From an uncultured Mycoplasmatota bacterium (GTDB lineage: Bacteria > Bacillota_I > Bacilli_A > RF39 > UBA660), in NCBI GenBank assembly GCA_947572405.1, contig CANPBV010000002.1, forward strand, positions 1-38,256: a DNA stretch of 38,256 nucleotides. The letters run 5' to 3'. Made by a program: the position numbers and the translations under genes. Positions 22,857 through 37,792 of the stretch are shown piece after piece (position 1 is the stretch's first letter; each line of letters opens with the position of its first letter). The notes under the pieces were generated by a model. It worked only from the letters and a program-made list of their open reading frames with translations. It had not been told where the DNA came from and did no database searches.

Positions 22857-23187
22857 TTTAAAATTGTTTTTAGGAATTGTAACGATTGTTTATTTTATTA
22901 TTATTTTAATAGCCATAAAGAAGGAATCCATGCCTATAAAAAGTTCAATTATATGGTTTTTCTTTGGCATAATTATGGTGATCTGCATTTTTATAGGCCC
23001 GTTTTTGGACCTCATTTGTGAAGTAATTGATGTAAAAGAGGTTTCCAATTTATTATTATTTGGTGGATTTATGTCACTCTTAATATTATCATTCGACTTA
23101 TATGTTTTATATTATAAATTGAAGAAAAATAATATTATATTGGCCCAGAAAGTGGCGATCTTGGAAAATGAAATCAAGAATAAATAA
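22843..23187 (+). CDS. Small three- to four-TM membrane protein (DUF2304-like, commonly paired with GT2)
   Basis: The ATG at 22843 has SD gggagga and overlaps the GT2 gene by 14 nt. The protein is hydrophobic with a C-terminal amphipathic helix. The family assignment is from memory of the GT2+DUF2304 gene pairing. Confidence 0.5.
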   Translation: MISINLKLFLGIVTIVYFIIILIAIKKESMPIKSSIIWFFFGIIMVICIFIGPFLDLICEVIDVKEVSNLLLFGGFMSLLILSFDLYVLYYKLKKNNIILAQKVAILENEIKNK

Positions 23188-23569
23188 TTTAGTTTCTAAA
23201 TTATACACCCCAGTAAAATATCTTTTTTCATCAGGAATTTCTTTTGTAATAGACCAATTATTGTTTAATATATTAATATTTTTTTATAAAAAAAATGCCT
23301 TTGTAATTGTGGCAAAATTAATTGCTAGAGCAATTTCTTCACTGATTAATTTTTTTCTTAATTCCAAACTTGTTTTTTCTAGTAAAGATAGAAATTCGAT
23401 TTTTAAATATTACGCATTAGTGATGATACAAGCTCTCATTTCCAGCCTTTCTATTTATATACTCAAAAACATTTTTACCGAACTCTCAGTTAGCCTCATA
23501 AGCATATGCGTTGATATAATTATTTTTATAATTAATTATGTCATCCAGAAGGAGTGGATTTTTAAATGA
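23168..23569 (+). CDS. GtrA family membrane protein
   Basis: 133 aa with four TM helices. FSSGISFVIDQLLFNIL N-terminal pattern, and a WIF-type C-terminus (QKEWIFK). Confidence 0.8.
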   Translation: MKSRINNLVSKLYTPVKYLFSSGISFVIDQLLFNILIFFYKKNAFVIVAKLIARAISSLINFFLNSKLVFSSKDRNSIFKYYALVMIQALISSLSIYILKNIFTELSVSLISICVDIIIFIINYVIQKEWIFK

Positions 23570-25290
23570 TATATTTATTAAGATTGATTTTGTTTTGGTT
23601 TTCATATATAGGTATCATTCGATTTGTGAAAGACCGCTTAAAAATAGAATGCGATTTTTCATTAGGAATTACTACCTTATTACTAATTATCATTTTATTT
23701 CTGGCAAGCATTTTAAACATATTAAAATTGGTGTCATTTGCGTTGTTTATTTTAGGTATTTTATACAACATAATTTTTGCTTTTAAACAATTGAAAAACA
23801 AGCACAAAATCCAATTAAACTATAAAATAATTTTCATTGTAGTGTTTTTCATTTACTTAACTTTTATTGCAACACAATTTAAATTTAGCGGGTATGATAA
23901 TTTTTCTCATTGGGCTTTAATGGCTAAACAGTTGTTTACTTATGATGCATTACCATCCTTTGAATATGGTTTGGTTGACTTTACTACTTATCCCCCTGCT
24001 AGTTCTCTATTTATATATTACGTAGGATTGATAGCGGGAAGAGTAGAAACCTCCATGATAATAGGGCAACTTTACTTGACCTTTATATTTTTAACTCCAT
24101 TAATGGCATTTTTTAAAGAAAAAACAAAAAAGAGCAATGTTGTATTATTTTCTTTATTAACACTATTTATTTTGAATTGTAATATTGCGTTAATGGATTT
24201 AATGGTAGATACATTGCTAGGTAGTCTTGGAATTTTCTCCTGTTGCATAGCTTATTATTATAGAAATGATTTGAAAAAAGTTTTTCTATACCTGACTTTG
24301 ACCTCTAGTATATTTATGATATTAAAAAACAGTGGAGTTTTATTTATTGCTTTTAATGTTATTTTATTATTTATTGTAGGAGTATATAATAAAAAAATAA
24401 AAAAATCTATATTATATGGGACATTGCTTTTACTAATTGCCTTTTCATTCTTTGTTTTATGGCAACAACATTTAAAAATGGTGTATCCAGGAGAAACAGG
24501 AGTGACGACAAAACATTCTATCAGTTTAGCGAATTTTAGGAGGACTATATCTAAAAATGGAATTGAGCAAACTAAAAAGGTTGGAATGAAATATTTGAGT
24601 AGTTTTGCAAATGTAAAAGATAATATTATTTTATATTATTTAGGAGCCATAAATATTTTGATTATTATAATGATGTTCGTTTCTAAAAAGTATAAAGAAT
24701 TATTACGAACCCTTTTATTTATCGATCTTATGTATGTAGGCTATTGGGCCTGTTTGGGAATTATGTATATTTTGTCTATGCCCTATGAAGAGGCAATTCG
24801 ATTGGCTTCTTATAGTAGATACATGATGTCATGTATTATTATATTTTTTGGGATTATAGGCATTATTACATTTGAATTAAATTCAAACAAAAATAAATTA
24901 TATAATATAACACTGTGTTGTTTTATTTTAAGTTCTATTTATTTTAATCCATTTAGTAATTATCAATATTTTTATCGTGGAAATGATCATTCGGAAATTG
25001 ATGAGATAGAAAAAATAGTAGAGAAGTATCCAATAGATGAATTTAAAGAAAACAATGTATATTTGTATCTTGATTGTGAGTTTACTTCATATTATCATTG
25101 GTTGTTACGTTATAAGTATTTTCAAAATAATGTTAGTGTAAAATGTGGCACAACTGATACAACAGCATTAGAAAGCGAAGCAATTGCGATTGTACCATTT
25201 TATGCAGAACAGGTAGAACAAAATAATAAAAATCTTGTCAAAATTCGAGAGAATATATTTAAAGTGAAAGTAGAGGAGAATGAAGTATGA
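23566..25290 (+). CDS. Large polytopic membrane protein, candidate GT-C fold glycosyltransferase
   Basis: 574 aa, about 13 TM helices, with an acidic first-loop segment (SGYDNFSHW). ATGA overlaps at both ends indicate translational coupling with gtrA and ugd. The function is inferred from context only. Confidence 0.5.
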   Translation: MIYLLRLILFWFSYIGIIRFVKDRLKIECDFSLGITTLLLIIILFLASILNILKLVSFALFILGILYNIIFAFKQLKNKHKIQLNYKIIFIVVFFIYLTFIATQFKFSGYDNFSHWALMAKQLFTYDALPSFEYGLVDFTTYPPASSLFIYYVGLIAGRVETSMIIGQLYLTFIFLTPLMAFFKEKTKKSNVVLFSLLTLFILNCNIALMDLMVDTLLGSLGIFSCCIAYYYRNDLKKVFLYLTLTSSIFMILKNSGVLFIAFNVILLFIVGVYNKKIKKSILYGTLLLLIAFSFFVLWQQHLKMVYPGETGVTTKHSISLANFRRTISKNGIEQTKKVGMKYLSSFANVKDNIILYYLGAINILIIIMMFVSKKYKELLRTLLFIDLMYVGYWACLGIMYILSMPYEEAIRLASYSRYMMSCIIIFFGIIGIITFELNSNKNKLYNITLCCFILSSIYFNPFSNYQYFYRGNDHSEIDEIEKIVEKYPIDEFKENNVYLYLDCEFTSYYHWLLRYKYFQNNVSVKCGTTDTTALESEAIAIVPFYAEQVEQNNKNLVKIRENIFKVKVEENEV

Positions 25291-26615
25291 AAATAGTGAT
25301 AGCAGGAACTGGATATGTGGGATTGGTTACTGGTGTAGTGTTAGCGAATACTGGGCATAATGTGACTTGTGTAGATGTGGATCAAAAGAAAATTGACTTG
25401 ATGAATAGTGGCAAAAGTCCGATTTATGAAGAGGGCTTAGAAGAATTGATGGTAAAAAACAAAGAGCGTTTAAATTATACAACAGATTATAAAAACGCTT
25501 ACAAAAATGCTGAAGTAATATTTATAGGTGTTGCAACCCCTGAACATGTAGATGGATCAGCTAATTTAGATTATGTGTATGAAGTTGTAAAACAAATCGC
25601 CGAAAACCTAGAAAATGATTGTATAGTGGTTATAAAATCGACAGTGCCAATTGGAACGAATGATGAAATAGAAAAATATTTAAAAGAACATGTTAAAGAA
25701 AATATTCAAATATCAATTGTAAGTAATCCAGAATTTTTGGCACAGGGAACCGCAGTAAAGGACACATTATATGCTTCAAGAATTGTTGTTGGAACAGAGG
25801 ATGAAAGAGCCAAAGAAATTATGCGAGAATTGTATGAACCATTGACAAAAGAACCTTATAATGTTCCTTACATTTCAATGAATAGAAAAAGTGCGGAAAT
25901 GGTTAAATATGCATCCAATGATTTTCTGGCATTAAAAATTTCATATATTAATGAGATTGCTAATTTTTGTGAAAAAGTTGGCGCTAATATAGAAGATGTA
26001 ACAAAGGGAATGGGCTATGATCCTAGAATTGGAAATAAATTTTTAAAAGCAGGAATTGGATATGGTGGCTCTTGTTTCCCAAAAGATACAAAAGCACTTC
26101 ATTGGCTTAGTAGAAAATTTGAGGCTGAACTAAAAACGGTGAGGGCTTGTATTGAAGTCAATAAGCTTCAAAAAATTAGAATGTATACAAAATTAAAAAA
26201 CGATTTTAAATCACTTAATGGAGAGAATGTTGCAGTGCTTGGATTAACATTTAAAGCAGGAACCGATGATATGCGGGAAGCCCCATCAATAGACAATATT
26301 GAGCTTTTGTTAGATGCAGGTGCCAACGTTCATGCTTATGATCCTATTGGAATCGAAAAATTTAAAACCGCTATTGCTAATAGAATCCCAGATGAAACTG
26401 TACAGAAAAGAATCCAATATTTTGACAATATAGATGCTACAATAAAAGATTGTGTTGCCGTCATGATTATGACAGAATGGCCAGAAATTGTAAATTACGA
26501 TATTAAGAATTTTAAAAAATTAATGAAAACAGTAGCTATATATGATGGAAGAAATTGTTATTCTTTAGAGGAAATAAAAAAAGAAAATGTAAAATATGAA
26601 TCGATAGGTAGATAA
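25287..26615 (+). CDS. ugd: UDP-glucose 6-dehydrogenase
   Basis: Rossmann IAGTGYVGL, NPEFLAQG, catalytic GYGGSCFPKDT, LTFKAGTDDMREAP. Confidence 0.92.
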   Translation: MKIVIAGTGYVGLVTGVVLANTGHNVTCVDVDQKKIDLMNSGKSPIYEEGLEELMVKNKERLNYTTDYKNAYKNAEVIFIGVATPEHVDGSANLDYVYEVVKQIAENLENDCIVVIKSTVPIGTNDEIEKYLKEHVKENIQISIVSNPEFLAQGTAVKDTLYASRIVVGTEDERAKEIMRELYEPLTKEPYNVPYISMNRKSAEMVKYASNDFLALKISYINEIANFCEKVGANIEDVTKGMGYDPRIGNKFLKAGIGYGGSCFPKDTKALHWLSRKFEAELKTVRACIEVNKLQKIRMYTKLKNDFKSLNGENVAVLGLTFKAGTDDMREAPSIDNIELLLDAGANVHAYDPIGIEKFKTAIANRIPDETVQKRIQYFDNIDATIKDCVAVMIMTEWPEIVNYDIKNFKKLMKTVAIYDGRNCYSLEEIKKENVKYESIGR

Positions 26616-26616
26616 G

Positions 26617-28113
26617 ATGAGAACGAAAAAAGTTGTACTGAATTTTATTACAGATGTCTTGCCACAACTTATAATCGCTTTCTTAGGAATTTATAAAGTC
26701 AAAATATTTTTAAACATATTAGGAGAAAATTCACTAGGACTATATCAGTTATACTCACAAATAATAGCATATTTGATTCTTGCAGAAGGTGGAGTGGGGA
26801 CAGCAGTACTATTTAGATTATATAAGCCAGTTGAGAAAAAGGATCATAAAACTATAAATAAAATAATGGCAACAGCAAAAGTGCTTTTTCGGTATATAAC
26901 GTTGGTAATTATTATTTTAGGTATTATAATTTCATTATTTGTTAATTATTTTATAAAAGATTATGATGTTAATCGATTATATATTATATTGACTTTTATC
27001 ATTTTTCTATTTGGTGAAAGTATACTATATTTAACAGTCCCTGAAAAATGTAGGTTTGATGCAGATCAAAAAAAGTATATTTCCAATATAATATTTCAAA
27101 TAGGAGCCATTTTAAAATCTATATTAGAGATAGTATGTGTTATTCTTTTTAAAGATTTGTTAGCTATTTTAATATCAATATTGGTTGTTAACATAATAAC
27201 GAATATGGTATTTTATATAGTATATAAAAAATGTTATGGAAGAATAGAGACAAAAATAAAAAAAGATTATACCATTGTTAGGGATTCTAAACATTTATTT
27301 ATAAATACAATAGGAAATTTAATTGCAAATAATATAGATGTATTGATAATTTCTAAATTTTTAGGCTTTGGCTATGTAGTAATATATACGACTTATAATT
27401 ATATAGTTGATACTTTAAGAAAAATTTTGGAAAAAATTACAGGAGCAACGATGACTGGTATTGCAAGCGTTTTAAATAGTGATAAAGATAGAGCTTATGA
27501 CATTTTTTTAGAGTACAGTTCATTTACTTTTTTTATAGCTAATGTTATTTGTATTCCATTATTTTTCGTAATGAATTCATTTATTAAAATTTGGTATGAA
27601 AATGAAATATATACGAATGTTTTGCTTTCGGCTTTGTTTTCAGGCTGCTTATTTTATCAAATAATTAGAATTCCGCTTAAGACCTATACCTTTGCAGCAG
27701 GAGAATTTATAAAAATTAAAAAATATGTAATTTTTGAATGTATTGTGAATTTAACTTTGTCATTAATTCTAGTGAATTATATTGGAATAGCGGGAGTTTT
27801 AATTGCAACTTTAATATCCTTTATAACTTGTGATTATATTCCCAAATCATTGGTTATATTAAAAGATATTTTAAATACAAAAAGTAAGAAATATTATATT
27901 AATCATTTAAAATATGCTTTGATAATTATATTTGAAATTATACTTTTAAACTTTATCAAAATCGAATTAGGTAACATATTTACATGGCTTATTTTTTCCA
28001 TCATTATATTTATATTGATTTTACTGGTAACACTTTTATATTATCATGTATTAGGAGAAGATTTATTTTTAAAAAGATTTAATATCAAAAGAATTATGAA
28101 AAAGGAGAACTAA
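26617..28113 (+). CDS. wzx: Polysaccharide flippase (Wzx, MOP superfamily)
   Basis: 498 aa, about 12-14 TM helices, placed inside a glycosyltransferase operon. The assignment rests on topology and context. Confidence 0.7.
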   Translation: MRTKKVVLNFITDVLPQLIIAFLGIYKVKIFLNILGENSLGLYQLYSQIIAYLILAEGGVGTAVLFRLYKPVEKKDHKTINKIMATAKVLFRYITLVIIILGIIISLFVNYFIKDYDVNRLYIILTFIIFLFGESILYLTVPEKCRFDADQKKYISNIIFQIGAILKSILEIVCVILFKDLLAILISILVVNIITNMVFYIVYKKCYGRIETKIKKDYTIVRDSKHLFINTIGNLIANNIDVLIISKFLGFGYVVIYTTYNYIVDTLRKILEKITGATMTGIASVLNSDKDRAYDIFLEYSSFTFFIANVICIPLFFVMNSFIKIWYENEIYTNVLLSALFSGCLFYQIIRIPLKTYTFAAGEFIKIKKYVIFECIVNLTLSLILVNYIGIAGVLIATLISFITCDYIPKSLVILKDILNTKSKKYYINHLKYALIIIFEIILLNFIKIELGNIFTWLIFSIIIFILILLVTLLYYHVLGEDLFLKRFNIKRIMKKEN

Positions 28114-28114
28114 T

Positions 28115-29311
28115 ATGAGTAATAAAGTTTCAATAATTATGCCTACCTATAATGATTCTAATACTATAATTAGAACTTTAACTTCACTTTTAATACAAAC
28201 ATATAAAAATTGGGAATTAGTAATTGTAAATGACGGGTCAACAGATAATACAGCTACGATAATTAACGATTTTATTGATGAGAATCATTTATCTCATAAA
28301 ATTAAATATTTATATCAGGAAAATCAAGATCAATTAAATGCAATTAAAAATGGGCTAAATTATGCTAAAGGAGAATATCTTTATATATTGCATAGTGACG
28401 ATTTACTCCCTAATACTGTGTTTTTACAAAATTGTGTTGATTTTATGGATAAGCATTGTAATTGTGATGCAATTATAGGGGATTATATTATTATTGACAA
28501 AAATGATAATGTAACGAACATTTGGAAAACACCAAAGTATAGAAAAAAAAGAAGAATACCAGGCCATGTACTATTGAAAAATGGAGGAAATATTTATGGT
28601 GATGTTGCGTTTCACAGAAAAAAGATTTATGAAAAATACGTTAAAGCCAATTATTTAGATTGGAATACTCCATTTTGGTTAGATTTTTCAGAAAATCAAG
28701 TGAAAATGTTAAATGTATGCAAAATGAAATTTCCAATCTTAAAGTATAGACTAGATGGTACAAATTATAATACAAACGAGATAGGAAAACATAATGTTTT
28801 AAATGGTGAATTAAGGACTATGACAAATATTATGAAGTATTATAATATACCATTATTTCGATTACAGCAATTCTTTTATAATTTATTTAGGAGAAGATAT
28901 ATACGAAACTTAAGATTATCCCCATATATACCATTGATTTACTTTAATGGAGAACAAAAAGGAAAAGATCAAATATTAGACAAAGCCATTAAAAGGGTAT
29001 ATCCTAATGGATATTCTAATAATTTATGGTTAAGCTCTTTGGTCACTTTTTATTCTAAAAAAAGTGATAGAAAAATATTTGTGGAAGAGGTAAAAACGGA
29101 AGATGTTTTAATAGGAAGTGATTTGCGCAAATTTACAAAATTGTTGTTTGAAGGGAGTTTGCCTAAAATTTATTATATGTTATTTGATGAAATGAAGAAT
29201 GGCTTTAATACAATTGTTGTAAAAAGTGATAAAATGAAATCTAATTTAGAAGACATTGTAAAATTTTTATGTATTGGAAATGATGTAAAAGTAATTATAA
29301 GAAAGAAGTGA
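28115..29311 (+). CDS. GT2 family glycosyltransferase
   Basis: VSIIMPTYNDSNTI, LVIVNDGSTDNT, ILHSDD (DxD-type). Confidence 0.8.
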   Translation: MSNKVSIIMPTYNDSNTIIRTLTSLLIQTYKNWELVIVNDGSTDNTATIINDFIDENHLSHKIKYLYQENQDQLNAIKNGLNYAKGEYLYILHSDDLLPNTVFLQNCVDFMDKHCNCDAIIGDYIIIDKNDNVTNIWKTPKYRKKRRIPGHVLLKNGGNIYGDVAFHRKKIYEKYVKANYLDWNTPFWLDFSENQVKMLNVCKMKFPILKYRLDGTNYNTNEIGKHNVLNGELRTMTNIMKYYNIPLFRLQQFFYNLFRRRYIRNLRLSPYIPLIYFNGEQKGKDQILDKAIKRVYPNGYSNNLWLSSLVTFYSKKSDRKIFVEEVKTEDVLIGSDLRKFTKLLFEGSLPKIYYMLFDEMKNGFNTIVVKSDKMKSNLEDIVKFLCIGNDVKVIIRKK

Positions 29312-29315
29312 TTGA

Positions 29316-30026
29316 ATGCAAATTCCTAAGATAATTCATTATGTGTGGATGGGGAAAAAGCCAAAACCTAAAAAGATCGAAAAATGTATAAAAACTTGGG
29401 AAAAAAAGTTGAAAGATTATGAAATTATTGAATGGAATGAATCTAATTTTGATATAAATTCTCATCCATTTGTAAAAAAAGCCTATCAGGAAAAAAAATG
29501 GGCATTCGTGAGTGATTATGTTCGGGCCTGGGCTATCTATAATCAAGGGGGAATATATTTAGATACAGATGTTTATGTAATTGATTCATTAGATGAATTG
29601 CTTGATAATGAGGCATTTGTTGGCTATGAAGCTCCAAATTATCCCTTTACAGCTGTATTTGGGGCAGTAAAAAAACATCCATTTGTAAAAGACATGTTAG
29701 ATTATTATGATTCATTGGATCATTATAGTTTTAATTTTGAAGATAATAATACTTTATCAGTATCAAAATTATTGATAGAAAAATATGAGTGCAAGATTGG
29801 AAATATAGAACAACTACTAAAGACTGGAATCAAGGTGTATAAGGATGATGTATTGTGTAACCCATCTGAACATTCTAAAACTGTACATTTATTTTTCGGA
29901 AGTTGGACTGGAAAAAACAATTTTGAACGAAAGAAACACGAGTTTTTAAGATCTAAATTGAGTAATAAATTTAATATTAAATTGTATTGCACATATAGAA
30001 ATATCAAAAAATTTTTTCGGAGATAG
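29316..30026 (+). CDS. GT32-like glycosyltransferase (Gly_transf_sug / OCH1-type DXD)
   Basis: IPKIIHYVWMG N-terminus, SDYVRAWAIYNQGGIYLDTDV. Confidence 0.75.
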   Translation: MQIPKIIHYVWMGKKPKPKKIEKCIKTWEKKLKDYEIIEWNESNFDINSHPFVKKAYQEKKWAFVSDYVRAWAIYNQGGIYLDTDVYVIDSLDELLDNEAFVGYEAPNYPFTAVFGAVKKHPFVKDMLDYYDSLDHYSFNFEDNNTLSVSKLLIEKYECKIGNIEQLLKTGIKVYKDDVLCNPSEHSKTVHLFFGSWTGKNNFERKKHEFLRSKLSNKFNIKLYCTYRNIKKFFRR

Positions 30027-30029
30027 AAT

Positions 30030-30201
30030 ATGACAAATAGGGGAATTCTCTTAAAGGAATCCTAATTATATTGGTTGTGATAGGACATGTTTGCTTCTCT
30101 TTAAACTTTCCATTTTTTGTATCTATGATATTGATATAGCATTTATTTTCTTAATTTTCTATTCGTGTGGCTATTTTTTAAAAAACTATAAGGATAATTA
30201 A
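30030..30201 (+). pseudogene. Remnant of the 5-prime end of an acyltransferase-3 family gene, broken over three frames
   Basis: Hand translation gives MTNRGILLKES* (30030-30065), GILIILVVIGHVCFSLNFPFFVSMILI* (30056-30139) and AFIFLIFYSCGYFLKNYKDN* (30139-30201). Together they resemble the LLKGIxIxLVVxGH...FFxSGYF N-terminus of O-acyltransferases. The remaining ~270 codons are absent. Confidence 0.5.
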
Positions 30202-30277
30202 TATTAATCGTTTTTCTTTTATGGCTTTTCATCAAAAATAAAATGTTAAATAAAATCTTTGTTGGTTAGGAGGAAGT

Positions 30278-31243
30278 ATGAAAATATCTACAATTATACC
30301 AGTTTATAACACTTCCAAATATTTAAAAAAATGTATAGATAGTATTATTAACCAATCTATTGGGTTCCAAAATATAGAATTAATTATGATAAATGATGGC
30401 TCAACAGATAATAGTGAACAAATTATCAAAGAGTATCAGTCTAGGTACGATAATATTAAATATATATATCAAAAAAATAGCGGACAAGCTTCTGCAAGAA
30501 ATAAAGGACTTGATATTGCAACGGGAGAATATATATCTTTTGTTGATAGTGATGATTGGATTGATCAGGATATGTATGTAGAACTTTATCATTCCGCTAT
30601 CAGTGCAAATTATGATATCGTTACATGTGATTATACCTTTATCAAAGGTGACAAAAAAGAATATGTATCATTTGATTTTATACCTGATAGTAATAAAAAT
30701 TTTATCGTGATGAACACGGGTCCGTGTAATATGATTATCAAAAAAGCCTTTCTAGAAACAGAAAAGTTTGAATTTCCAGTGGGAATTATTTATGAAGATT
30801 TAGCGTCTATTCCTTCATTGGGAATAGATGCTAACATAATGCATTTAAAACAATCATTTTATAATTATTTGGTACGAGAAAATTCTACAATGAATAAAAA
30901 AAGCTATTCTTCAAAAATGGAAGATATATTTTTATCCTTAGAAAATTTATATACCATATTTCAAACCAAAGATTCCAAAAATGATTATCGTGAAGAACTA
31001 GAATTTTTATACATAAGGCGCTTAATGATGAGCGCAAGTTTAAGATTTATTTCCTATGGTGATCCAAACCAATGTATCAAAAGGATAAAAAAAGAAATCC
31101 AATTAAAATTTCCAAATTGGAGAAAAAATAAATATTATCGAAAGTTATCCTTTAAACAAAGAATAGTAGCACTTTTGACTTTTTATCAGCAAAGAAAAAT
31201 TTTACATATATTATATGATATTAATAATAGGAGGAAGATATGA
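30278..31243 (+). CDS. GT2 family glycosyltransferase
   Basis: ISTIIPVYNTSKYL, LIMINDGSTDNS, SFVDSDD. SD aggagg upstream. Confidence 0.85.
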   Translation: MKISTIIPVYNTSKYLKKCIDSIINQSIGFQNIELIMINDGSTDNSEQIIKEYQSRYDNIKYIYQKNSGQASARNKGLDIATGEYISFVDSDDWIDQDMYVELYHSAISANYDIVTCDYTFIKGDKKEYVSFDFIPDSNKNFIVMNTGPCNMIIKKAFLETEKFEFPVGIIYEDLASIPSLGIDANIMHLKQSFYNYLVRENSTMNKKSYSSKMEDIFLSLENLYTIFQTKDSKNDYREELEFLYIRRLMMSASLRFISYGDPNQCIKRIKKEIQLKFPNWRKNKYYRKLSFKQRIVALLTFYQQRKILHILYDINNRRKI

Positions 31244-32376
31244 AGTATTTAGTAATAGCACCTGGATATCCAAGCGAAGAAAATAAATACAATAATGGTT
31301 TTGTACATGGTAGGGTAAAACTTTACCTAGAAAGAAAATTGGATATTACAGTGTTTAGTTATACATCGGGGGACTTGAATGAATATGAATATGAGGGAGT
31401 AAAAGTATATACTGGTGGAAAAGATGCTTACATTCAATTTTTAAAGCAACATCAATTTGATAAGTACCTAATTCATTTTGGATACAAAAGAATTTTGAAA
31501 CCACTGATTCATATATATCCAAGTGCCGAAATTATTATGTGGGTTCATGGAGCAGAAGCACTAGGATGGTATCGTAGATTATTTGCTTTTAATCCTAGAA
31601 AGCCATACAGATTTTTAGGTTATATATTGCTTGATACAATACAATTAAGATATCTTCACAATTTTATTATGAAAAATTATAATGTTACCTTTGTATTTGT
31701 TTCGGAATGGATGAAAAACATATTGGAAAAAGACTCCCATACTGTTGGAAAAATTAAAAAATATGAAATTATTCCTAACGTGATTAATGATAAGATATTC
31801 CAATATCATAAAAAAACTGCGAATGATCGGTTTCATGTCCTCAGTATCAGGACGTATCAATCCAAGAAATATGCTAATGATTTATCAGTAAAAGCAATAT
31901 TAGAATTATCAAAAGAACCGTTTTTTGATCAATTGACATTTACCTTATATGGCGATGGGAGATTATTCGAAAAAACATTAAAGCCATTGCGTCAATTTAA
32001 AAATGTAAACATTCATAAAAAGTTTTTAAACCATCATGAGATAAGCGAAGTACATAGGCAAAATGGAATTATGTTGATTCCAACGCGTCAGGATGCCCAA
32101 GGAGTATCTATGTGTGAAGCCATGATGAGTGGATTAGTTCCAGTTACCTCAAATAATACAGCAATACCAGAATATTTGCCAATTGATTGTGGTTATTTAG
32201 CAAATAACTATCATGAGCTTGCCAAAGCCATAAAAGAAATGTATTATAACCAAGAAGAATTTTTAAAGAGATCAGAAAATGCACATCATTTTATTCTGAA
32301 AAAATGTTCTTCAAAAATAATAATGGATAAGGAATTAGAGGTAATCAAAAGTGCAAGAAACAATTCTCAGAAATAA
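31240..32376 (+). CDS. GT4-type (Glycos_transf_1) glycosyltransferase
   Basis: C-terminal ExxGxxxxEAMxxGxPV-type block (DAQGVSMCEAMMSGLVPVTSNN). ATGA overlap with the upstream gene. Confidence 0.78.
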   Translation: MKYLVIAPGYPSEENKYNNGFVHGRVKLYLERKLDITVFSYTSGDLNEYEYEGVKVYTGGKDAYIQFLKQHQFDKYLIHFGYKRILKPLIHIYPSAEIIMWVHGAEALGWYRRLFAFNPRKPYRFLGYILLDTIQLRYLHNFIMKNYNVTFVFVSEWMKNILEKDSHTVGKIKKYEIIPNVINDKIFQYHKKTANDRFHVLSIRTYQSKKYANDLSVKAILELSKEPFFDQLTFTLYGDGRLFEKTLKPLRQFKNVNIHKKFLNHHEISEVHRQNGIMLIPTRQDAQGVSMCEAMMSGLVPVTSNNTAIPEYLPIDCGYLANNYHELAKAIKEMYYNQEEFLKRSENAHHFILKKCSSKIIMDKELEVIKSARNNSQK

Positions 32377-33325
32377 AAAGAGTTTACTTTTAATTATAAT
32401 GGCATTCATTTTTATCATTATAATGTTATCCTTATCACATTGCTTATTGATTCATTTTAATCATTTAAAACAGAGGAATTATGGTAAAACGATTGATGGC
32501 CCGATAAAAGATTTTTTAGACATAAAACCAGAAATATATGTACCAATAGTTCCAAATGAGGAACCAGAACCACCAGCAATTGAGATTCCATTACATGAAC
32601 GTGCTAACAGCATTCCCATTTTAGCTTATCATAGTTTTATGTGGAAACAAGATAGGCAAAAATATGCCAAAGATGATAAGTACACAATGAATATAGAGGA
32701 TTTTGATGAACAATTAAATTATTTATATCAGAATGGTTATCATACTATTGATTATAGGGAATTGTATCAGTGGCTAAAAGGAGAAATTGAACTTGACAAC
32801 AAAAGTTTTATGATAACAATAGATGATGGAAATATATCTGCATATCATCTTGCTCTTCCTGTAATTGAAAAATATAATTACAGTGCTATTATATTTGTAA
32901 TAGTAGGACGATTAAAACCCACATCAATTGCATATGATCCACAAACAGTAGGTTTTTTTGGAGATGATATTGTAAAAGATATAGAAGATCATCATAAGGC
33001 AATTACATTAGGATCCCATTCAACCTATTTACATGCAACAATTGATGGGAAAAATCCAATGGAGGTTTTGTCATATGAGGACTTATTAAATGACTTATCG
33101 GTTTCCAAACAAAGATTGAACACAGATGTTTTTGCATATCCTTTTGGAATGTATAATGAAGCCTATTTAAATGCAACTAAAAATGCAGGCTTTAAAATGG
33201 CTTTTACGTTTAAACCTTCTGGAAGAGCAAGAAGGACAAACGGAGTATATGAAATACCAAGGATAAATATAAACTCAGAAGTATCATTTAGAAAGTTTAA
33301 AAGATTAGTCGAAACGGATTGGTAG
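32351..33325 (+). CDS. Membrane-anchored polysaccharide deacetylase (NodB homology domain)
   Basis: N-terminal TM helix, NodB motif 1 ITIDDGN, and the histidine motif LGSHSTYLH. The GTG start at 32351 is uncertain. Confidence 0.78.
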   Translation: MQETILRNKKSLLLIIMAFIFIIIMLSLSHCLLIHFNHLKQRNYGKTIDGPIKDFLDIKPEIYVPIVPNEEPEPPAIEIPLHERANSIPILAYHSFMWKQDRQKYAKDDKYTMNIEDFDEQLNYLYQNGYHTIDYRELYQWLKGEIELDNKSFMITIDDGNISAYHLALPVIEKYNYSAIIFVIVGRLKPTSIAYDPQTVGFFGDDIVKDIEDHHKAITLGSHSTYLHATIDGKNPMEVLSYEDLLNDLSVSKQRLNTDVFAYPFGMYNEAYLNATKNAGFKMAFTFKPSGRARRTNGVYEIPRININSEVSFRKFKRLVETDW

Positions 33326-33338
33326 AAGGAGATAAAAG

Positions 33339-34442
33339 ATGGTAAAAGTAATGACAGTATTTGGCACAAGGCCAGAAGCCATAAAAATGGCCCCTTTGGT
33401 GAAAGAATTAAAGACCAGAAAGGAAATAGAGACCATTGTATGTGTGACTGCACAACATAGGGAAATGTTAGATCAGGTGTTAGAAGCATTTGACATTAAG
33501 CCAGATTATGATTTAAATATTATGAAACAGGGACAAACCTTGGCGGATGTGACAACAAGGGCCTTACAGGGACTAGAAAAGGTAATCAAAGAGACGAATC
33601 CTGATATAGTACTTGTCCATGGAGATACAACAACTACATTCGCAGGAGCTTTGGCTGCTTTTTATAATAGTGTTTCGATTGGGCATGTAGAAGCTGGACT
33701 TAGAACATGGGATAAATATTCCCCGTATCCAGAAGAAATGAACCGACAAATGGTTGGATGTATGGCTGATATGCATTTTTCCCCAACAATCGTAAGTGCA
33801 GAAAATTTATTAAATGAAGGAAAGAAAAAGGAAAATATTTATATTACAGGAAACACAGCCATTGATGCCATGAAAACAACGGTAAGAAAAGATTATCAAC
33901 ATGAAGTATTGGATTGGGCTAAAGATAGTAAAATGATTTTATTGACTGCCCATAGAAGAGAAAATCTTGGAGATCCAATGTTTCACATATTTAAAGCCGT
34001 AAAAAGAATCGTGGATGAATTTCCAGATATCAAAGTGATTTATCCAATTCATCTGAACCCTAAAGTGAGAGAAATTGCCAGAGAAGTTTTAAAAAATTGT
34101 GATAGGGTTAAATTAATTGAACCGTTAGAAGTAGTTGATTTTCATAACTTTATTAATCAGTCCTATATTATTTTAACGGATAGTGGAGGAATTCAAGAAG
34201 AAGCTCCTTCACTTGGAAAACCTGTGTTAGTTCTTAGAGATACCACAGAGCGTCCGGAAGGGATTACTGCAGGGACATTAAAACTAGTTGGGACAGAGGA
34301 AGAAAATATTTATAATGAAACAAAAGTATTACTTACTGATAAAGCTGAATATGAAAAAATGAGTCGTGCAAGCAATCCCTATGGGGATGGAGAAGCTAGT
34401 AAACGTATAGTGGATGCAATTATGGAAAGATTTTCAAAATAA
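33339..34442 (+). CDS. mnaA: UDP-N-acetylglucosamine 2-epimerase (non-hydrolysing)
   Basis: FGTRPEAIKMAP, HGDTTT, HVEAGLRT, DSGGIQEEAPSLGKPVLVLRDTTERPE. SD aaggag 7 nt upstream. Confidence 0.92.
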   Translation: MVKVMTVFGTRPEAIKMAPLVKELKTRKEIETIVCVTAQHREMLDQVLEAFDIKPDYDLNIMKQGQTLADVTTRALQGLEKVIKETNPDIVLVHGDTTTTFAGALAAFYNSVSIGHVEAGLRTWDKYSPYPEEMNRQMVGCMADMHFSPTIVSAENLLNEGKKKENIYITGNTAIDAMKTTVRKDYQHEVLDWAKDSKMILLTAHRRENLGDPMFHIFKAVKRIVDEFPDIKVIYPIHLNPKVREIAREVLKNCDRVKLIEPLEVVDFHNFINQSYIILTDSGGIQEEAPSLGKPVLVLRDTTERPEGITAGTLKLVGTEEENIYNETKVLLTDKAEYEKMSRASNPYGDGEASKRIVDAIMERFSK

Positions 34443-34452
34443 GGAGAAATCA

Positions 34453-35430
34453 ATGAAAGTAATTGCGTATGACTTTGATGGAACCATCTATGATGGAGAT
34501 TCTTCCATTGATTTTTATAAATTTTGTTTAAAAAAGAAAAAAAGCATTTGTAAATATTGGCCGAGGCAATTATGGTTTTTCGTACTTTATATTTTGGGCA
34601 TAAAAACAAAAACAGAAATGAAAGAGGTATTCTTTTGTTTTTTGAAAGATTTTAAAAATCAAGAACAACTAATAAAAGAGTTTTGGGAAATTCATTATAA
34701 AAAGATGAAAAATTGGTATTTAGAAAAAAAGCATTCTGATGATATTATTATTTCGGCTTCTCCAGAATTTTTATTAGAGATTCCTTGTCAAAAGTTAAAG
34801 GTAAAGGATTGTATTGCTTCTGTAGTAGATCAAAAAACAGGAAAGTTTTTAAGAGAAAACTGTCATGGAGAAGAAAAAGTAAAAAGATTAAAAGAAAAAT
34901 ATAAAAATGTAATCGTTGCAGAAATGTATACAGATAGTAGTGTAGACTTACCTATGATTGAATTATCTAATAAAGGTTTCAAAGTAAAAAAAGATAATAT
35001 AATTCCTTATTATGATTATCAGGAAACGACCTTTGAAAAAATAAAACATACCTTTTTTACTCCAACGTTTATTCGTTTTGTTCTTGTAGGTTGCTTAAAT
35101 ACTTTTAATGGTGTATTATTTTCTTTTTTGTATTCTTTACTGATTGAAAATGCAACATTGGCTTTTGCTATAGGATATATCACTAGCCTAACTATTTCTT
35201 ACTTATTAAATAGTTATATTACATTTCGTGATAAGTATTTAACATTTTCAAAATTTATGAAATTTTGTATTTCCTATATTCCAAATTTCTTGATTCAATT
35301 ACTTTGCGTTTATATAATTACTAATATATTAGGATTATATAAATTGATTGCTTATATGATAGCTGCTATTATAGGGATCCCAATTACTTATTTGGCTTTG
35401 TTATTACTTCCATTTAAAAAAAAGAAATAA
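34453..35430 (+). CDS. Fusion protein: HAD-superfamily phosphatase domain + C-terminal GtrA-like four-TM domain
   Basis: HAD motif I AYDFDGTIYDGDS, motif II ISASP, a Lys-rich cap, motif IV YTDSSVDLPM. FIRFVLVGCLNTFNGVLFSFLY and three more TM helices follow (GtrA pattern). I prefer the ATG at 34453 (SD aaggag) to the track start at 34414. Confidence 0.75.
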   Translation: MKVIAYDFDGTIYDGDSSIDFYKFCLKKKKSICKYWPRQLWFFVLYILGIKTKTEMKEVFFCFLKDFKNQEQLIKEFWEIHYKKMKNWYLEKKHSDDIIISASPEFLLEIPCQKLKVKDCIASVVDQKTGKFLRENCHGEEKVKRLKEKYKNVIVAEMYTDSSVDLPMIELSNKGFKVKKDNIIPYYDYQETTFEKIKHTFFTPTFIRFVLVGCLNTFNGVLFSFLYSLLIENATLAFAIGYITSLTISYLLNSYITFRDKYLTFSKFMKFCISYIPNFLIQLLCVYIITNILGLYKLIAYMIAAIIGIPITYLALLLLPFKKKK

Positions 35431-35468
35431 ATTTAAAATATTGCATATAATATATTGATTTCAGCAAT

Positions 35469-35497
35469 TTGACATTCTATTTTAAATATGGTAGAAT
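35469..35497 (+). promoter_or_regulatory. Near-consensus sigma-A promoter driving the noncoding region
   Basis: -35 TTGACA (35469-35474), exactly 17 nt of spacer, TGg extension, -10 TAGAAT (35492-35497). Confidence 0.6.
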
Positions 35498-35504
35498 GTT
35501 GATT

Positions 35505-36110
35505 GTAAATTGAAATGGCACATTATTCTAGTCAATTTCGTTTATTATGAGGGTGGCCCTAAAAAGTCACTAAAGAGCATATCTGTGAAACTTCTTGTGC
35601 TTGCTTCTTACGCCCAGTTTGGGGTGAGTGCTGGGAGGGATAGATGATTGGGCAACTGTAATGGCATACAGGAAAACCGACCCACCATCTTGGAGACCTA
35701 ATCTTGTTATTTCCCTATACACGAAAGTTGATGGAGAAGTGACGACTTAGGATTAAACCTACTATGTGATGATAAGTTACGAGTAGTGTAGCTTGTCCTG
35801 AGTGAGTATTTGGGGATTATTGAACAGCTTTTATTTGAATGGCCAACCAAATAAAAGAATTGCAATATGAAACAATACTTGCAAAAAGGAACTAATAATA
35901 AACAGAGTTGTCGAGGAAATCTCCTAGAGTGTCTATTTATATAGGATTGCAGTGCGTACTCAGTGGCAATCAAGTCATATATTCGGTGACGATATATTTA
36001 CTTCTATAATGGGGAACCCCTCTTCTGGTAACGGGAGAGTTTGAAGTAAGGGAAATCCTACTTGACCTTAAGACGCAAAGTTTACTATATAGATAGCCAT
36101 TTTTTTTGTA
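35505..36110 (+). ncRNA. Large (~600 nt) structured noncoding RNA candidate, OLE-like
   Basis: No forward ORF lies between 35431 and 36126. By hand count, G+C for 35581-36060 is 191/480 (about 40 percent), against 18-32 percent in sampled coding lines. Verified hairpins: a 10-bp perfect stem 35828-35837/35848-35857 and a 6-bp stem 35945-35950/35966-35971. There are many G/C-rich blocks (gggtggccc, ggggtgagtgctgggaggg, cgacccacc, ggggaacccc). A consensus promoter lies upstream and an OapA-like gene lies directly downstream in the same orientation. Both ends are approximate. Confidence 0.6.
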
Positions 36111-36126
36111 TATTTTTAGGAGGTAG

Positions 36127-36711
36127 ATGATGGGAAAATATATGAATGAATTAAATAAAAATAAAAAGTTTAAAAAGGAGAAAAAATTAGTTGATTATAG
36201 TTGGATTTTAAAGATATCAATGATTGCTTTTACCTTATCTATTGTATTTTCATTGCTTTCTGAAACAGTAATGCCAAAAGTAAATCTTTGGATCGGAATT
36301 GTCATTTTGATTTTATTTATTGGAATAGGAATCGCATTCGATATGGTAGGGGTTGCAGTAACAGCGGCCGAAGAAACTCCATTTCATTCCATGGCGGCTA
36401 GAAAGGTAAGAGGGGCAAAGGTAGCAGTTAAATTTAAAAGAAACGCGGCTCAGGTTTCTTCATTCTGCAATGATGTAATTGGAGACATTTGTGGGATTGT
36501 ATCAGGTTCTACTGGGGCTATTTTGTCAATTACAATATCCAACTCGTTACAGATAGACGCTTTACTAGTAAGCTTACTTGTAACTGCCTTAATTGCAGCC
36601 TTAACAATTGGTGGAAAAGCGATGGGGAAGGGGTTTGCAGTGACCAAAAGTAATGTGATATTATTTGAGTTTTCTAAAATTGTATCTTTAATTTATAATC
36701 CTAAAAAATAG
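36127..36711 (+). CDS. oapA: Small four-TM membrane protein, OapA-like (OLE-associated protein A candidate)
   Basis: SD aggagg at 36118-36123, so the ATG at 36130 is probably the true start. About 190 aa with four predicted TM helices. Conserved-looking FDMVGVAV and a DxxxD motif (NDVIGDICG) sit at the start of TM3. The family assignment comes from recollection of OapA properties plus the adjacent RNA. Confidence 0.55.
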   Translation: MMGKYMNELNKNKKFKKEKKLVDYSWILKISMIAFTLSIVFSLLSETVMPKVNLWIGIVILILFIGIGIAFDMVGVAVTAAEETPFHSMAARKVRGAKVAVKFKRNAAQVSSFCNDVIGDICGIVSGSTGAILSITISNSLQIDALLVSLLVTALIAALTIGGKAMGKGFAVTKSNVILFEFSKIVSLIYNPKK

Positions 36712-36736
36712 TAGAAATTAAATTCTACTATTTTTG
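36709..36736. terminator. Bidirectional terminator between oapA-like and the convergent acyltransferase gene
   Basis: tagtagaa / ttctacta 8-bp stem, 6-nt loop. T5 follows on the + strand and T6 on the - strand. Confidence 0.65.
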
Positions 36737-37706
36737 TGTTTTGAAAAAAATATGAAAAGTGTTTTTGTATATTCATAAATGTATAAAAGTATTATTCCAC
36801 TTAATATAGAACAACTAAAAACCAAAATAATATTAACCATTAAACTATTTGTAATATTTAAAATAGACATATGTTGCATAATAAATAAATAATGTGTTAA
36901 ATAAATGAAATAACTATATTTATCATTGCGCTTTAACAGCAAATTGTATTTAATTTGGAATTTATCAAAAATAATATAAAGTACAAAATATAGCATAATT
37001 CCCAGAAATACTCGTCCAAAATCAGAAAGGATAGATATATGACTAGTAACAAAACTTGGAAGATTGATAGGTAGATGATACCAATAAATAATACGAAAAG
37101 GGAATAGACATAAAAATAAAATAAACATTGAAATAAAGAAATTCTTTTTTTCTTTTTTTAAAGTACAGTGTTTGGTAAAATAATATCCTAATACATAATT
37201 ACATATCCATGCTGGATTGATGTTAACCACGTGAAATTCAAACAGTAAGATAGTAATTAATAAAAATAAGATCAAAGTTTTTAAATGGCCCTTGTTTTTA
37301 AATAAAATTTGTAATATTGGAGTAATGACATAACAAATTAAAATATAACTTACAAACTATGTGTTATCTAAAGAGAATAATCTTCCACAAAAGCCCCCAA
37401 AGCCAAGTACATTAGCTAAAATGAATAATTTAGAATATTTAATATTATATAAGAAATAATCTACACAAGTTATGATTAACACTAAAATGCTAAGTGGCAA
37501 TAATATTTTTATTAGTCTTTGCTTGTAAAACTGTTTCCAGTCTTTTATTTCTTTTTGTCCATATAAATATCCTGAAATAAAAAAGAAGATTTGTACTCCT
37601 ATAGTAAGCCAATAATAAAAAGAAATATCCAACTGTTGATAAATGTGGCAAAATATAATTAAAGAAGCAAATCGAATTAAAGGTATTGTTATATTTTTTC
37701 TTTCAT
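36718..37706 (-). pseudogene. Acyltransferase-3 family (O-acyltransferase) gene disrupted by a homopolymer frameshift and an in-frame TAG
   Basis: Track ORFs 37357-37632 and 36718-37275 are in the same frame. Only a TAG at 37357-37359 separates them, and read-through gives ...LFSLDNT*FVSYILICYVITPILQ.... The protein has the VQIFFFISGYLYG motif. The natural ATG at 37704-37706 (MKEK...) is out of frame because of an A6 tract (T6 at 37694-37699 on the + strand). With A7 it would read MKEKNITIPLIRFASLIIFCHIY.... Confidence 0.7.
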
Positions 37707-37792
37707 AAAATTCTTCAATCTAGTGTATTTTTACTATTTCTCATTATCACATACATTTTGAAAGAAAACAAAATTCCTTATGATAGCTTATA

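Follow-up and report, generated by a model that had tools for sequence, protein, structure and literature searches.

The analysed stretch of DNA, a window of 38,256 nucleotides (38 kb), has a gap of 696 nucleotides between the stop codon of a HAD::GtrA fusion gene (TAA at 35428-35430) and the next ATG at 36127. This gene-free region of ~600 nucleotides is a typical, complete OLE RNA, and it is followed by the gene of the membrane partner of that RNA, OapA. The features of the locus are collected in Table 1.

Table 1. Features of the ole-oapA locus; positions are those of the window
Feature	Position	Strand	Details
sigma-70-type ole promoter	35469-35497	+	-35 TTGACA 35469-35474, 17-nt spacer, extended -10 TGgTAGAAT 35489-35497
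OLE RNA gene (RF01071), full-length type	35499-36116	+	Rfam, covariation in 68 sequences, MFE fold
Terminal (P1-like) helix, 5' strand	35512-35519	+	GAAAUGGC; pairs with 36096-36103
Putative P3 helix, 5' strand	35524-35531	+	UAUUCUAG; long-range pairing with 35924-35931 (CUAGAGUG)
P4 hairpin and P4a/J4a-5	35552-35590	+	A-rich loop CCUAAAAA at 35558-35565; P4a/J4a-5 AAAGAGCAUAUCUGUGAAA at 35572-35590
P5/P5.1	35591-35637	+	loop GCCCA at 35612-35616
P6/P6.1	35642-35690	+	loop AUGGCA at 35661-35666
J6/7	35691-35696	+	UGGAGA; k-turn / OapC-bS21 region
P7	35697-35751	+	~52-55 nt
P8	35759-35787	+	~26-29 nt; AUUAAAC joins P7 to P8
Long P9 arm	35795-35892	+	helices 9-13; loop AAUGGCCAAC, palindrome GGCC 35841-35844
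Domain 2 multi-helix junction	35934-36095	+	outer 11-bp helix 35934-35944/36085-36095
Domain 2 5-bp helix	35953-35957/36073-36077	+	
P12.2	35970-35975/36060-36065	+	
P13 (primary OapB site)	35977-35997	+	bulged U 35982, GUGA tetraloop 35986-35989
P14/P14.1 (secondary OapB site)	35998-36049	+	GUAA loop 36028-36031
P15	36050-36059	+	GGGAAAUCCU
Terminal helix, 3' strand, into U8 tract	36096-36107	+	GCCAUUUU 36096-36103; U8 tract 36100-36107
oapA	36118-36711	+	RBS AGGAGG 36118-36123; TAG 36709-36711
13-bp AT-rich hairpin	36704-36740		A-run and U-run flanks; MFE -13.2 kcal/mol, z = -6.1

A preliminary description of this DNA had read the gap as an OLE-like RNA followed by oapA, and had proposed a covariance-model search as the check. 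That search confirms the reading, and every figure given in the description was reproduced. In the Rfam scan OLE (RF01071), with its gathering score of 50, is matched at 403.5 bits and E = 2.8e-115, eight times the threshold over the whole model; the match is 618 nucleotides long, spans model positions 1-616 and is not truncated. In the window sequence 142 of the 155 model pairs are canonical or G-U. When the single OLE sequence is folded, the minimum free energy (MFE) structure has a z-score of -5.0 relative to shuffled sequences and recovers the helices of the model, plus P1 and P3. The mature RNA likely extends from ~35505 to ~36107. The other large-RNA families that had been put forward for comparison leave OLE standing by itself: at gathering thresholds it is the sole Rfam family matched in the window, with no match anywhere in it for ROOL, GOLLD, HEARO, raiA, RNase P, the group II intron or tmRNA, and ARAGORN finds neither tmRNA nor tRNA there. 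We found no point that counts against the identification, and the caveats given below concern the mechanism only.

The RNA has a promoter of its own. The near-perfect promoter that was said to open the region is indeed there, with 11 of 12 matches to the consensus plus the extended -10 TG, and it scores highest among the 19 promoter-like sites that a scan of 34800-37400 returned. We scored 68 relatives in the same respect. Most of them have a near-consensus promoter, with 10 or more of the 12 hexamer positions matched and usually with the extended -10 TG, and its end lies 17-30 nucleotides ahead of the first conserved RNA block; judged by this conserved distance, the ole promoter is real, and transcription is predicted to start at about 35502-35507. 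The further suggestion that a dedicated promoter is unusual for OLE was wrong, since a proximal ole promoter has been demonstrated experimentally in B. halodurans (PMC3413148) and most of the 68 relatives carry theirs in the same place.

At the other end of the RNA, the U8 tract is likely to act as the OLE 3' end or as a point of partial termination. In the window and in its closest relatives this U tract is followed by the ribosome-binding site, and in many other relatives a separate GC hairpin plus U-run lies between ole and oapA. Behind oapA, folding alone revealed the AT-rich hairpin of Table 1, which none of 200 shuffled sequences matched in folding energy and which covers both stop codons where oapA and the acyltransferase gene converge. 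It is probably an intrinsic terminator that works in both directions and marks the end of the ole-oapA unit. A consensus scan of 34800-37400 returned no terminators; it missed this hairpin because it requires at least three G-C pairs.

The OLE match ends at 36116 and the ATG of oapA follows at 36127 or 36130 on the same strand. Since the RNA ends only ~10-20 nucleotides before the oapA ribosome-binding site, and the window has no canonical terminator between them, oapA must be transcribed through OLE from the common promoter. The same arrangement could be expected if the region were a long, riboswitch-like 5' leader that acts in cis on the oapA mRNA and not an RNA that acts in trans. We judge this to be very improbable. 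In the many relatives with the GC-rich hairpin and U-run, a terminator separates the two genes. Among 80 loci from related gut-metagenome genomes OLE lies upstream of an oapA homologue on the same strand in 75, but in at least seven loci the distance is 0.4-2.1 kb. Furthermore, the OLE RNA of B. halodurans forms one species, abundant and very stable, and its level changes independently of the oap mRNA (PMC3413148). It is also the OapA protein, not the mRNA, to which OLE binds (PMC12265935).

Conservation and covariation in relatives, which had been proposed as a second check on the OLE identity, are both strong. We aligned 68 relatives with MAFFT and projected the Rfam structure onto the alignment; regular-expression anchors for helix lengths proved brittle in divergent sequences, and the projected structure was used in their place. 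Over the 68 sequences 87.4% of the paired cells hold pairs, against 72.6% for shuffled and 40-44% for slid controls. Changes on both sides are seen for 120 of the 155 model pairs, and none of 500 shuffles comes up to the observed values. At the sequence level 147 of the 618 window positions (24%) do not vary at all, and 89 more are conserved in 90% of the sequences or more. The conserved blocks include CUAAAAA, CGCCCAG, AAUGGCAU, UGGAGAC and GUAGC, and further along UGAAAC, GGAAA..CUAG, AGUGG.AAUC and GGGAAAUCC.

Three pairings lie outside the Rfam consensus structure. The terminal, P1-like helix is found by the MFE fold, and its pair 35519-36096 varies between C-G (43 sequences), U-A (10) and A-U (3), while the slid controls collapse. 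The long-range helix that joins 35524-35531 to 35924-35931 is also found by the MFE fold; seven of its eight positions hold a pair in all 68 sequences, the eighth in 60 of them, and the pair 35527-35928 occurs as U-A (50), U-G (11) or C-G (7). We infer that this is the helix named P3; in the published model P3 surrounds domain 1, and a passage through the membrane has been proposed for it (PMC12265935). The third is a putative 6-bp stem that was already noted in the preliminary description, GATTGC (35945-35950) with GCAATC (35966-35971). This stem is paired in 63-68 of the 68 sequences at each position, nearly invariant, with two double changes only.

In domain 1, the P4 helix (helix 1 of the projected structure) is 93% paired, with five of six pairs covarying. 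The A-rich P4 loop is described as a dimer contact, and P4a/J4a-5 is the proposed OapA site and holds the GA nucleotides of a k-turn (PMC12265935, PMC9723947). At this proposed OapA site the consensus has a P4a palindrome, CAUCGAUG, which is degenerate both in the window (UAUCUGUG) and across most of the clade. Helices 2, 4 and 5 of the P5-P6 region are 91-95% paired. The loops of P5.1 and P6.1 are near-invariant, reading ACGCCCAGU and UAAUGGCAUA in 52-58 of the 68 sequences; they have been described as kissing-loop dimer contacts, next to the region of the k-turn and of OapC and bS21 (PMC12286853, PMC12265935, PMC9723947). For P7 and P8 (helices 6 and 7) the paired share is 86-90%; covariation is seen at 12 of the 17 pairs of P7 and at 8 of the 12 pairs of P8.

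The perfect 10-bp hairpin of the preliminary description, CTTTTATTTG (35828-35837) with its complement at 35848-35857, is real and turns out to be the tip of the P9 arm. The P9 loop holds a self-complementary tetranucleotide in all of the 66 sequences that keep the distal arm, and six different palindromes are used: GGCC (~26), GUAC (~22) and AGCU (~14), plus CUAG, GAUC and ACGU. A palindromic P9 loop is the signature described for bridge B3, where the two molecules of the OLE dimer meet in a kissing loop (PMC12286853), and the sequence variation seen here lends independent support to that contact.

In domain 2, pairing in helices 15-20 is at 83-100%, and covariation extends to nearly all of their pairs. 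Binding of OapB requires a GNRA loop and a single-nucleotide bulge (PMC7936274); P13 in the window reads AUAUA-U-UCG-GUGA-CGA-UAUAU. A 4-bp hairpin at positions 424-435 of the Rfam model is missing in the window and in most of the clade.

OLE RNAs are typically hosted by anaerobic or extremophilic Bacillota. The closest relatives of the window copy come from metagenome-assembled genomes (MAGs) that are titled uncultured Bacilli, Tenericutes or Mollicutes and were assembled from mouse, rabbit, ruminant and human gut. Going by these record titles, the host is most likely a gut-associated member of the low-G+C uncultured Bacilli, not an extremophile, which would agree with an anaerobic host among the Bacillota. 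Compared with full-length OLE RNAs (Fernando & Breaker 2024, PMC11332333), the window copy has the same length of ~600 nucleotides, the same conserved blocks, a strong promoter of its own and all of the major helices, P7, P8 and the long, palindrome-tipped P9 among them; it also shares the P13 GNRA loop with the bulged nucleotide, and the position immediately upstream of oapA. It differs in the missing hairpin of model positions 424-435 and the degenerate P4a palindrome, in its AT-rich stems (38% G+C) and in its probable gut host.

Two variants have been described from hosts of a similar kind, uncultured gut Bacillota with small, AT-rich genomes. Variant 1 (TANB77 clade) has shortened P7-P9 and often no OapB site, and variant 2 (RF39 clade) has neither P7 nor P8 (PMC11332333). 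The window copy belongs to neither, because it has P7, P8, a full P9 and an intact P13 site with its GUGA loop and bulge. In particular, it is of the full-length type and not variant 2, as P7 and P8 are both present and base-paired.

The gut host, the lost hairpin and the degenerate P4a palindrome might suggest a divergent RNA, or a new large-RNA class, that merely resembles OLE, or else a relic copy that has lost its function. This is scarcely conceivable for a sequence that covers the whole model at eight times the threshold, keeps every highly conserved block, stands beside a partner gene that is intact, and has a promoter that is both strong and conserved. OLE is, moreover, already documented from uncultured gut lineages with reduced genomes, in a survey of 2,822 representatives across the Bacillota (PMC11332333). 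The new RNA class that the preliminary description had kept as a fallback does not apply.

The composition of the region had been another argument for a structured RNA. Our recount of 35581-36060 gives the same figure of 191/480 (39.8% G+C). The whole window has 29.3% and the 618-nucleotide OLE span 37.7%, which places it at the 99.3rd percentile of windows of this length (maximum 38.2%). The enrichment is real; it is not unique to the RNA, since nearby coding DNA of the epimerase gene and oapA reaches 38-40% in places. As had been reported, the gap holds no forward ORF: no forward frame is open for more than 50 codons, and every frame has 9-21 stop codons. The one ORF in it runs on the minus strand (35707-35973, 88 aa) and matches no Pfam family. 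This ORF, and a clearly decayed acyltransferase gene close by, would be the grounds for taking the region as the remnant of a protein gene, but the chance of this is as good as nil given the stops in all frames, the reverse ORF that matches nothing in Pfam, the covariance-model match at E = 2.8e-115 and substitutions among relatives that preserve base pairs and not codons.

The downstream ORF is OapA. Its coding sequence may begin at ATG 36127 (194 aa) or ATG 36130 (193 aa); the second is more likely, and the database gene call is also of 193 aa. The DxxxD motif, named as distinctive of OapA (PMC11332333), is found as N-D-V-I-G-D at residues 115-120 of the 194-aa ORF. The block FCNDVIGD is invariant in 27 of 27 sequences (alignment A1), and D115 and D119 in 41 of 41 (alignment A3). 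Hydropathy peaks at about residues 27-45, 56-78, 113-135 and 143-165 indicate four hydrophobic segments, and positive charges are concentrated in residues 1-25 (eight K/R) and 83-112 (seven K/R). An AlphaFold model of the single sequence was unusable (pLDDT 47) and was replaced with an alignment-based AF2 model (pLDDT 78), which predicts long helices at 23-50, 53-79, 106-140 and 144-172.

The top five Foldseek matches of this model in the PDB are all CorB/CorC transporters of the CNNM family, namely MtCorB (7m1t/7m1u) and CorC (7cff), with probabilities of 0.85-1.00, TM scores of 0.44-0.48 and E-values of 0.014-0.15; the next matches have probabilities of at most 0.16. The predicted structural likeness between OapA and CorB is specific but modest. 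In sequence, the downstream ORF has no significant Pfam or NCBIfam family, and the PDB sequences, searched with a profile from the OapA alignment, gave no hit even at E-values of up to 10. The window protein itself reaches the CNNM profile (PF01595) only at a relaxed threshold (E = 6.6), and two homologues with ~60% identity (P0057 and P0074) score 25 bits against a cut-off of 28.4. The protein resembles the published OapA of H. halodurans in its four predicted transmembrane helices, the DxxxD motif, the positive cytoplasmic segments and a gene directly after ole. A sub-threshold similarity to CNNM and a best structural match to the same MtCorB entry (7M1U/7M1T) have also been described for that protein (PMC11332333). 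Unlike MpfA, and as expected for OapA, the 194-aa protein has no additional domains, neither CBS nor CorC. Genes for OapB, OapC, bS21 and MpfA are all absent from the 38-kb window.

We are all but certain that 35469-36740 is a self-contained ole-oapA unit with promoter, full-length OLE, OapA and closing hairpin. A mechanism can be proposed for it by homology to the systems studied through H. halodurans genetics and Clostridium cryo-EM. The strong sigma-70 promoter would drive a full-length-type OLE RNA of ~600 nucleotides; within 20 nucleotides there would follow the ribosome-binding site and coding sequence of OapA, a predicted four-helix membrane protein with a CNNM-like fold and the DxxxD motif, and the AT-rich hairpin would then close the unit. 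For dimerisation, membrane localisation, stress function and transport activity we infer from the literature on OLE (PMC12265935, PMC11332333, PMC3413148). By analogy, the RNA would fold into two domains connected by the P3 helix, and two copies may dimerise by way of the A-rich loop of P4, the kissing loops of P5.1 and P6.1 and the GGCC palindrome at the tip of P9. In H. halodurans the RNA is bound by OapA and depends on it for localising to the membrane (PMC12265935), and the OapA encoded here would likewise anchor the RNA at the cell membrane. The resulting ribonucleoprotein may aid tolerance of stresses such as cold, too much Mg2+, short-chain alcohols or a poor carbon source. It would most probably do so by modulating the transport or sensing of divalent cations by OapA, with the RNA standing in for the cytoplasmic regulatory domains of transporters of the MpfA/CorB type.

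The genomic neighbourhood had also been called unusual, as the unit sits at the end of a polysaccharide locus. That context is present here. Among the 80 loci an epimerase gene and the HAD::GtrA fusion directly upstream of OLE are found only in L001 and L003, and we rejected a conserved polysaccharide-locus context. As this neighbourhood is common only to the two closest relatives it does not appear to be functionally significant. Genes that cluster with ole are already known to include those of cell-wall biosynthesis (PMC12265935), and a coupling between domain 2 and cell-envelope glycopolymers has already been speculated upon in the integral-membrane-RNA model. One might imagine that in this clade of gut Bacilli with small genomes ole-oapA is an autonomous two-gene, strong-promoter cassette that relocates between loci, and that its placement at the end of the 15-kb polysaccharide operon reflects such a coupling of domain 2; we regard this as improbable.

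OLE is among the most intriguing of bacterial RNAs, but the copy described here matters little beyond its correct annotation: ole and oapA at this locus are already known and nothing new, the RNA being a typical full-length member with the usual promoter and partner gene, and the type of lineage, uncultured gut Bacillota, falls within the published survey. One use of the result is in naming oapA, which public records now list only as a ‘hypothetical protein’. Another is the set of AT-rich, full-length OLE RNAs, whose rich covariation extends to P1 and P3, helices that have no place in the Rfam consensus. A lesser point is that the clade widens the set of P9 kissing-loop palindromes, with GUAC about as common as GGCC and with CUAG and ACGU in use as well.

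The 696-nt gap without a forward ORF that separates the stop codon of the HAD::GtrA fusion gene (35430) from the next start codon (36127) was reproduced exactly, and it almost certainly hosts a member of the OLE family at 35499-36116. Of all 4,227 Rfam families, scanned over the whole window at their gathering thresholds, only OLE (RF01071, forward strand) matched, scoring 403.5 bits (threshold 50; E = 2.8e-115) with model positions 1-616 covered without truncation. Projecting the consensus structure places both partners of 155 of the 159 model pairs, 142 of these 155 being canonical or G-U, and all that is missing is the 4-bp hairpin of model positions 424-435. The same helices are recovered by a thermodynamic fold of 35505-36107 (-171 kcal/mol, z = -5.0).

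The simpler observations of the preliminary description also hold. Its G+C count for 35581-36060 is correct (191/480, 39.8%, versus 29.3% for the window); the OLE span lies at the 99.3rd percentile of 618-nt windows, with nearby coding DNA in places also at 38-40%. Both hairpins that it noted, of 10 bp and 6 bp, are perfect, and a near-consensus promoter (TTGACA, 17 nt, TGgTAGAAT; 35469-35497) does open the gap. Each reading frame of the gap carries 9-21 stop codons, and a Pfam search with the 88-aa reverse ORF gave no match.

Related loci were fetched via the downstream protein from GTDB species-representative genomes, giving 543 confirmed relatives, of which the best 80 were kept. The records of these are nearly all MAGs or other assemblies from uncultured organisms, most titled as uncultured Bacilli, Tenericutes or Mollicutes and stemming from gut projects on mice, rabbits, ruminants and humans. 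A full-length OLE lies directly upstream of the oapA homologue in all 12 loci tested with Rfam, and an nhmmer profile places a same-strand OLE upstream in 75 of the best 80 of the 543 relatives. Covariation was measured on 68 full-length copies, aligned with MAFFT and carrying the projected Rfam structure. Paired cells amount to 87.4%, versus 72.6% in column shuffles and 40-44% with slid partners; of the 155 pairs, 120 have changed on both sides, and none of 500 shuffles reached any of the observed measures. The reading as OLE is thus supported by the Rfam match and by the conservation and covariation that the preliminary description had proposed to check. Its fallback, a new class of large RNA, is not supported: this is a typical OLE, with the partner gene, promoter and structural elements usual for the family, and is already known. 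The family was first described in 2006. A 2024 survey across GTDB counts 2,822 representatives, uncultured gut lineages included (PMC11332333).

Coordinates of RNA elements and neighbouring genes in the window
Feature	Position	Strand	Details
Polysaccharide biosynthesis locus	19973-35430		
Terminal helix	35512-35519 with 36096-36103	+	GAAAUGGC with GCCAUUUU; one pair switches C-G, U-A, A-U
Long-range helix	35524-35531 with 35924-35931	+	one pair goes U-A, U-G, C-G
P4 loop	35558-35565	+	A-rich, CCUAAAAA
P5.1 loop	35612-35616	+	GCCCA
P6.1 loop	35661-35666	+	AUGGCA
P7	35697-35751	+	
P8	35759-35787	+	
P9 arm	35795-35892	+	full
P13 hairpin	35977-35997	+	intact; AUAUA-U-UCG-GUGA-CGA-UAUAU
P14.1 second GNRA loop	36028-36031	+	GUAA
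oapA ORF	36127-36711	+	194 aa
Acyl_transf_3 (O-acyltransferase) gene	36718-37719	-	disrupted

Three types of OLE were distinguished by Fernando and Breaker: full-length, variant 1 (TANB77), with P7-P9 shortened and the OapB site often absent, and variant 2 (RF39), without P7 and P8 (PMC11332333). Because P7, P8, a full P9 arm and an intact P13 are present, the window copy is of the full-length type. Binding of OapB needs the GNRA tetraloop of P13 and a single bulged nucleotide, and the B. halodurans loop is also GUGA (PMC7936274), as here. The terminal and long-range helices fall outside the Rfam consensus; both are supported and both are recovered by the MFE fold. By its position the long-range helix would be P3, which bounds domain 1 and for which a path through the membrane has been proposed (PMC12265935).

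The P4, P5.1, P6.1 and P9 loops are dimer contacts reported from cryo-EM structures (PMC12286853, PMC12265935). All are found in the window OLE and are near-invariant in the clade. P9 ends in the 10-bp hairpin (35828-35857), whose loop, AAUGGCCAAC (35838-35847), contains the palindrome GGCC. A self-complementary tetranucleotide occurs at this site in all 66 relatives in which the distal arm is retained, in six forms (GGCC, GUAC, AGCU, CUAG, GAUC and ACGU), with GUAC about as common as GGCC. These palindromes match the covariation that Kretsch et al. regard as the signature of an intermolecular kissing loop; GGCC, GAUC and AGCU are mentioned in their paper (PMC12286853). The nucleotides of the OapC/bS21 k-turn (J4a/5 GUGAA and J6/7 UGGAGAC) are conserved, and the P4a consensus palindrome, a proposed OapA site, is degenerate in the window. 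Two related loci carry an OLE of ~515 nt (L011:1253-1797 and L038:3797-4345) that keeps P7 and P8 and has neither the distal P9 arm nor its palindromic kissing loop, a form unlike the published variants 1 and 2 as those are understood.

The promoter at 35469-35497 is the best promoter-like site within 34800-37400. In most of the 68 relatives a near-consensus promoter (10 or more of the 12 hexamer positions matching; most often TTGACA, 16-17 nt, TGnTATAAT) ends 17-30 nt 5′ of the first conserved RNA block; judged from sequence, the ole promoter is not a chance match. We infer that transcription starts at about 35502-35507, just 5′ of the terminal helix. A dedicated promoter had been thought unusual, which is not borne out given its presence in most relatives and in B. 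halodurans, where a proximal promoter was demonstrated to raise OLE expression more than 100-fold (PMC3413148). The terminal helix merges at its 3′ end with a U8 tract (36100-36107), and the oapA ribosome-binding site comes 10 nt further on; in many relatives a separate GC-rich hairpin with a U-run stands between the two genes instead. This points to partial termination 3′ of OLE, with which the uncoupled levels of OLE and oap mRNA in B. halodurans (PMC3413148) are consistent. A 13-bp AT-rich hairpin at 36704-36735 (z = -6.1), in the stretch 36704-36740 and flanked by an A-run and a U-run, covers the stop codons of both oapA and the convergent acyltransferase gene and is probably a bidirectional terminator for the two; it was not picked up by a GC-dependent consensus terminator scan.

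The 194-aa ORF has each of the published hallmarks of OapA. It lies directly 3′ of ole, contains four hydrophobic segments, is rich in K/R at the N-terminus and in the central loop, and carries a DxxxD motif in the block FCNDVIGD, which is invariant in 27/27 sequences of one OapA alignment, with both aspartates invariant in 41/41 of another. Public annotation starts the gene at the second ATG (36130), giving 193 aa; this ATG is better spaced to AGGAGG (36118-36123) than the first. No Pfam or NCBIfam family matches the ORF at normal thresholds, and its homologues in public sources are named only ‘hypothetical protein’. Homologues at ~60% identity score 25 bits against PF01595, just below the cut-off of 28.4, and the protein is distantly related to CNNM. 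The top five PDB matches of an AlphaFold2 model (alignment of 41 sequences, pLDDT 78, pTM 0.67) are all CNNM transporters, i.e. MtCorB (7m1t, 7m1u) and CorC (7cff), with probability 0.85-1.00 and TM 0.44-0.48; the remaining matches have probability of at most 0.16. The best match reported for H. halodurans OapA is likewise 7M1U (PMC11332333).

The mechanism that we consider most probable, and propose tentatively, is that the RNA serves as the regulatory part of a device that transports or senses divalent cations, because OapA has a CNNM-like fold without CBS/CorC domains and a published anticorrelation with MpfA. By homology, OLE would be made in large amounts from its own promoter, fold into domain 1 (P3-P9) and domain 2 (P1, P2, P10-P15), and dimerise via the P4, P5.1/P6.1 and P9 loops. 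OapA dimers would hold it at the membrane, with P3 possibly spanning the bilayer, and the complex may help the cell to withstand Mg2+ excess, short-chain alcohols, cold and poor carbon sources (PMC12265935). Direct adjacency of the pair is not universal, which speaks for a role of OLE in trans: in seven loci (L020, L025, L037, L041, L060, L073 and L074) a distance of 0.4-2.1 kb separates OLE from the oapA gene downstream of it. OLE and OapA are described in the literature as almost completely mutually inclusive. Four loci, L006 (oapA 5944-6546), L029, L031 (5944-6522) and L055, encode an intact OapA homologue that keeps the FCNDVIGD block, have other protein genes directly upstream, and gave no OLE within ~6 kb either side by nhmmer or at the Rfam gathering score; ole may lie elsewhere in these genomes.

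The polysaccharide locus upstream had been taken as an unusual context, a view that finds no support. The epimerase and HAD::GtrA genes precede OLE only in L001 and L003, the two closest relatives, and the other 78 of 80 loci have different neighbours; genes for cell-wall biosynthesis are already known to cluster with ole (PMC12265935). We read the association as incidental, or at most as one more case of a known tendency. The decayed O-acyltransferase noted beside OLE is real: the Acyl_transf_3 gene is broken by one in-frame TAG (37356-37354), which probably arose from TGG within a conserved ..WF.. motif. The gene lacks an in-frame ATG, the only one nearby being +1 and beside an A-run. The broken sequence is identical in contigs of two other sequencing runs (SRR15604581 and SRR15604565), and so is not a one-off assembly error.

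Elsewhere in the window, a 98-aa ORF (1318-1614, +) aligns with peptide deformylase over the C-terminal half alone (profile 69-152 of 156) and may be a truncated or frameshifted def gene. A 666-aa protein (17729-19729, -) has an N-terminal membrane region and five or six PASTA repeats; Pfam reveals neither a kinase nor a transpeptidase domain in it, one of which normally accompanies PASTA domains. The polysaccharide locus opens with an O-antigen-ligase-like membrane domain fused to an Alg14-like domain (19973-22095, +), followed by a separate Alg13-like (GT28 C-terminal) gene, which together look like a split UDP-GlcNAc transferase. It further contains several GT2 and GT1 glycosyltransferases, GtrA, UDP-glucose dehydrogenase, a flippase, a polysaccharide deacetylase, UDP-GlcNAc 2-epimerase, the HAD::GtrA fusion, and a 574-aa ORF (23566-25290) with no Pfam match. 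The fusion (34414-35430, +), which joins a HAD-IB phosphatase domain to a GtrA-like transmembrane domain, is kept in L001 and L003, and its ORF overlaps the preceding epimerase gene by 29 nt.
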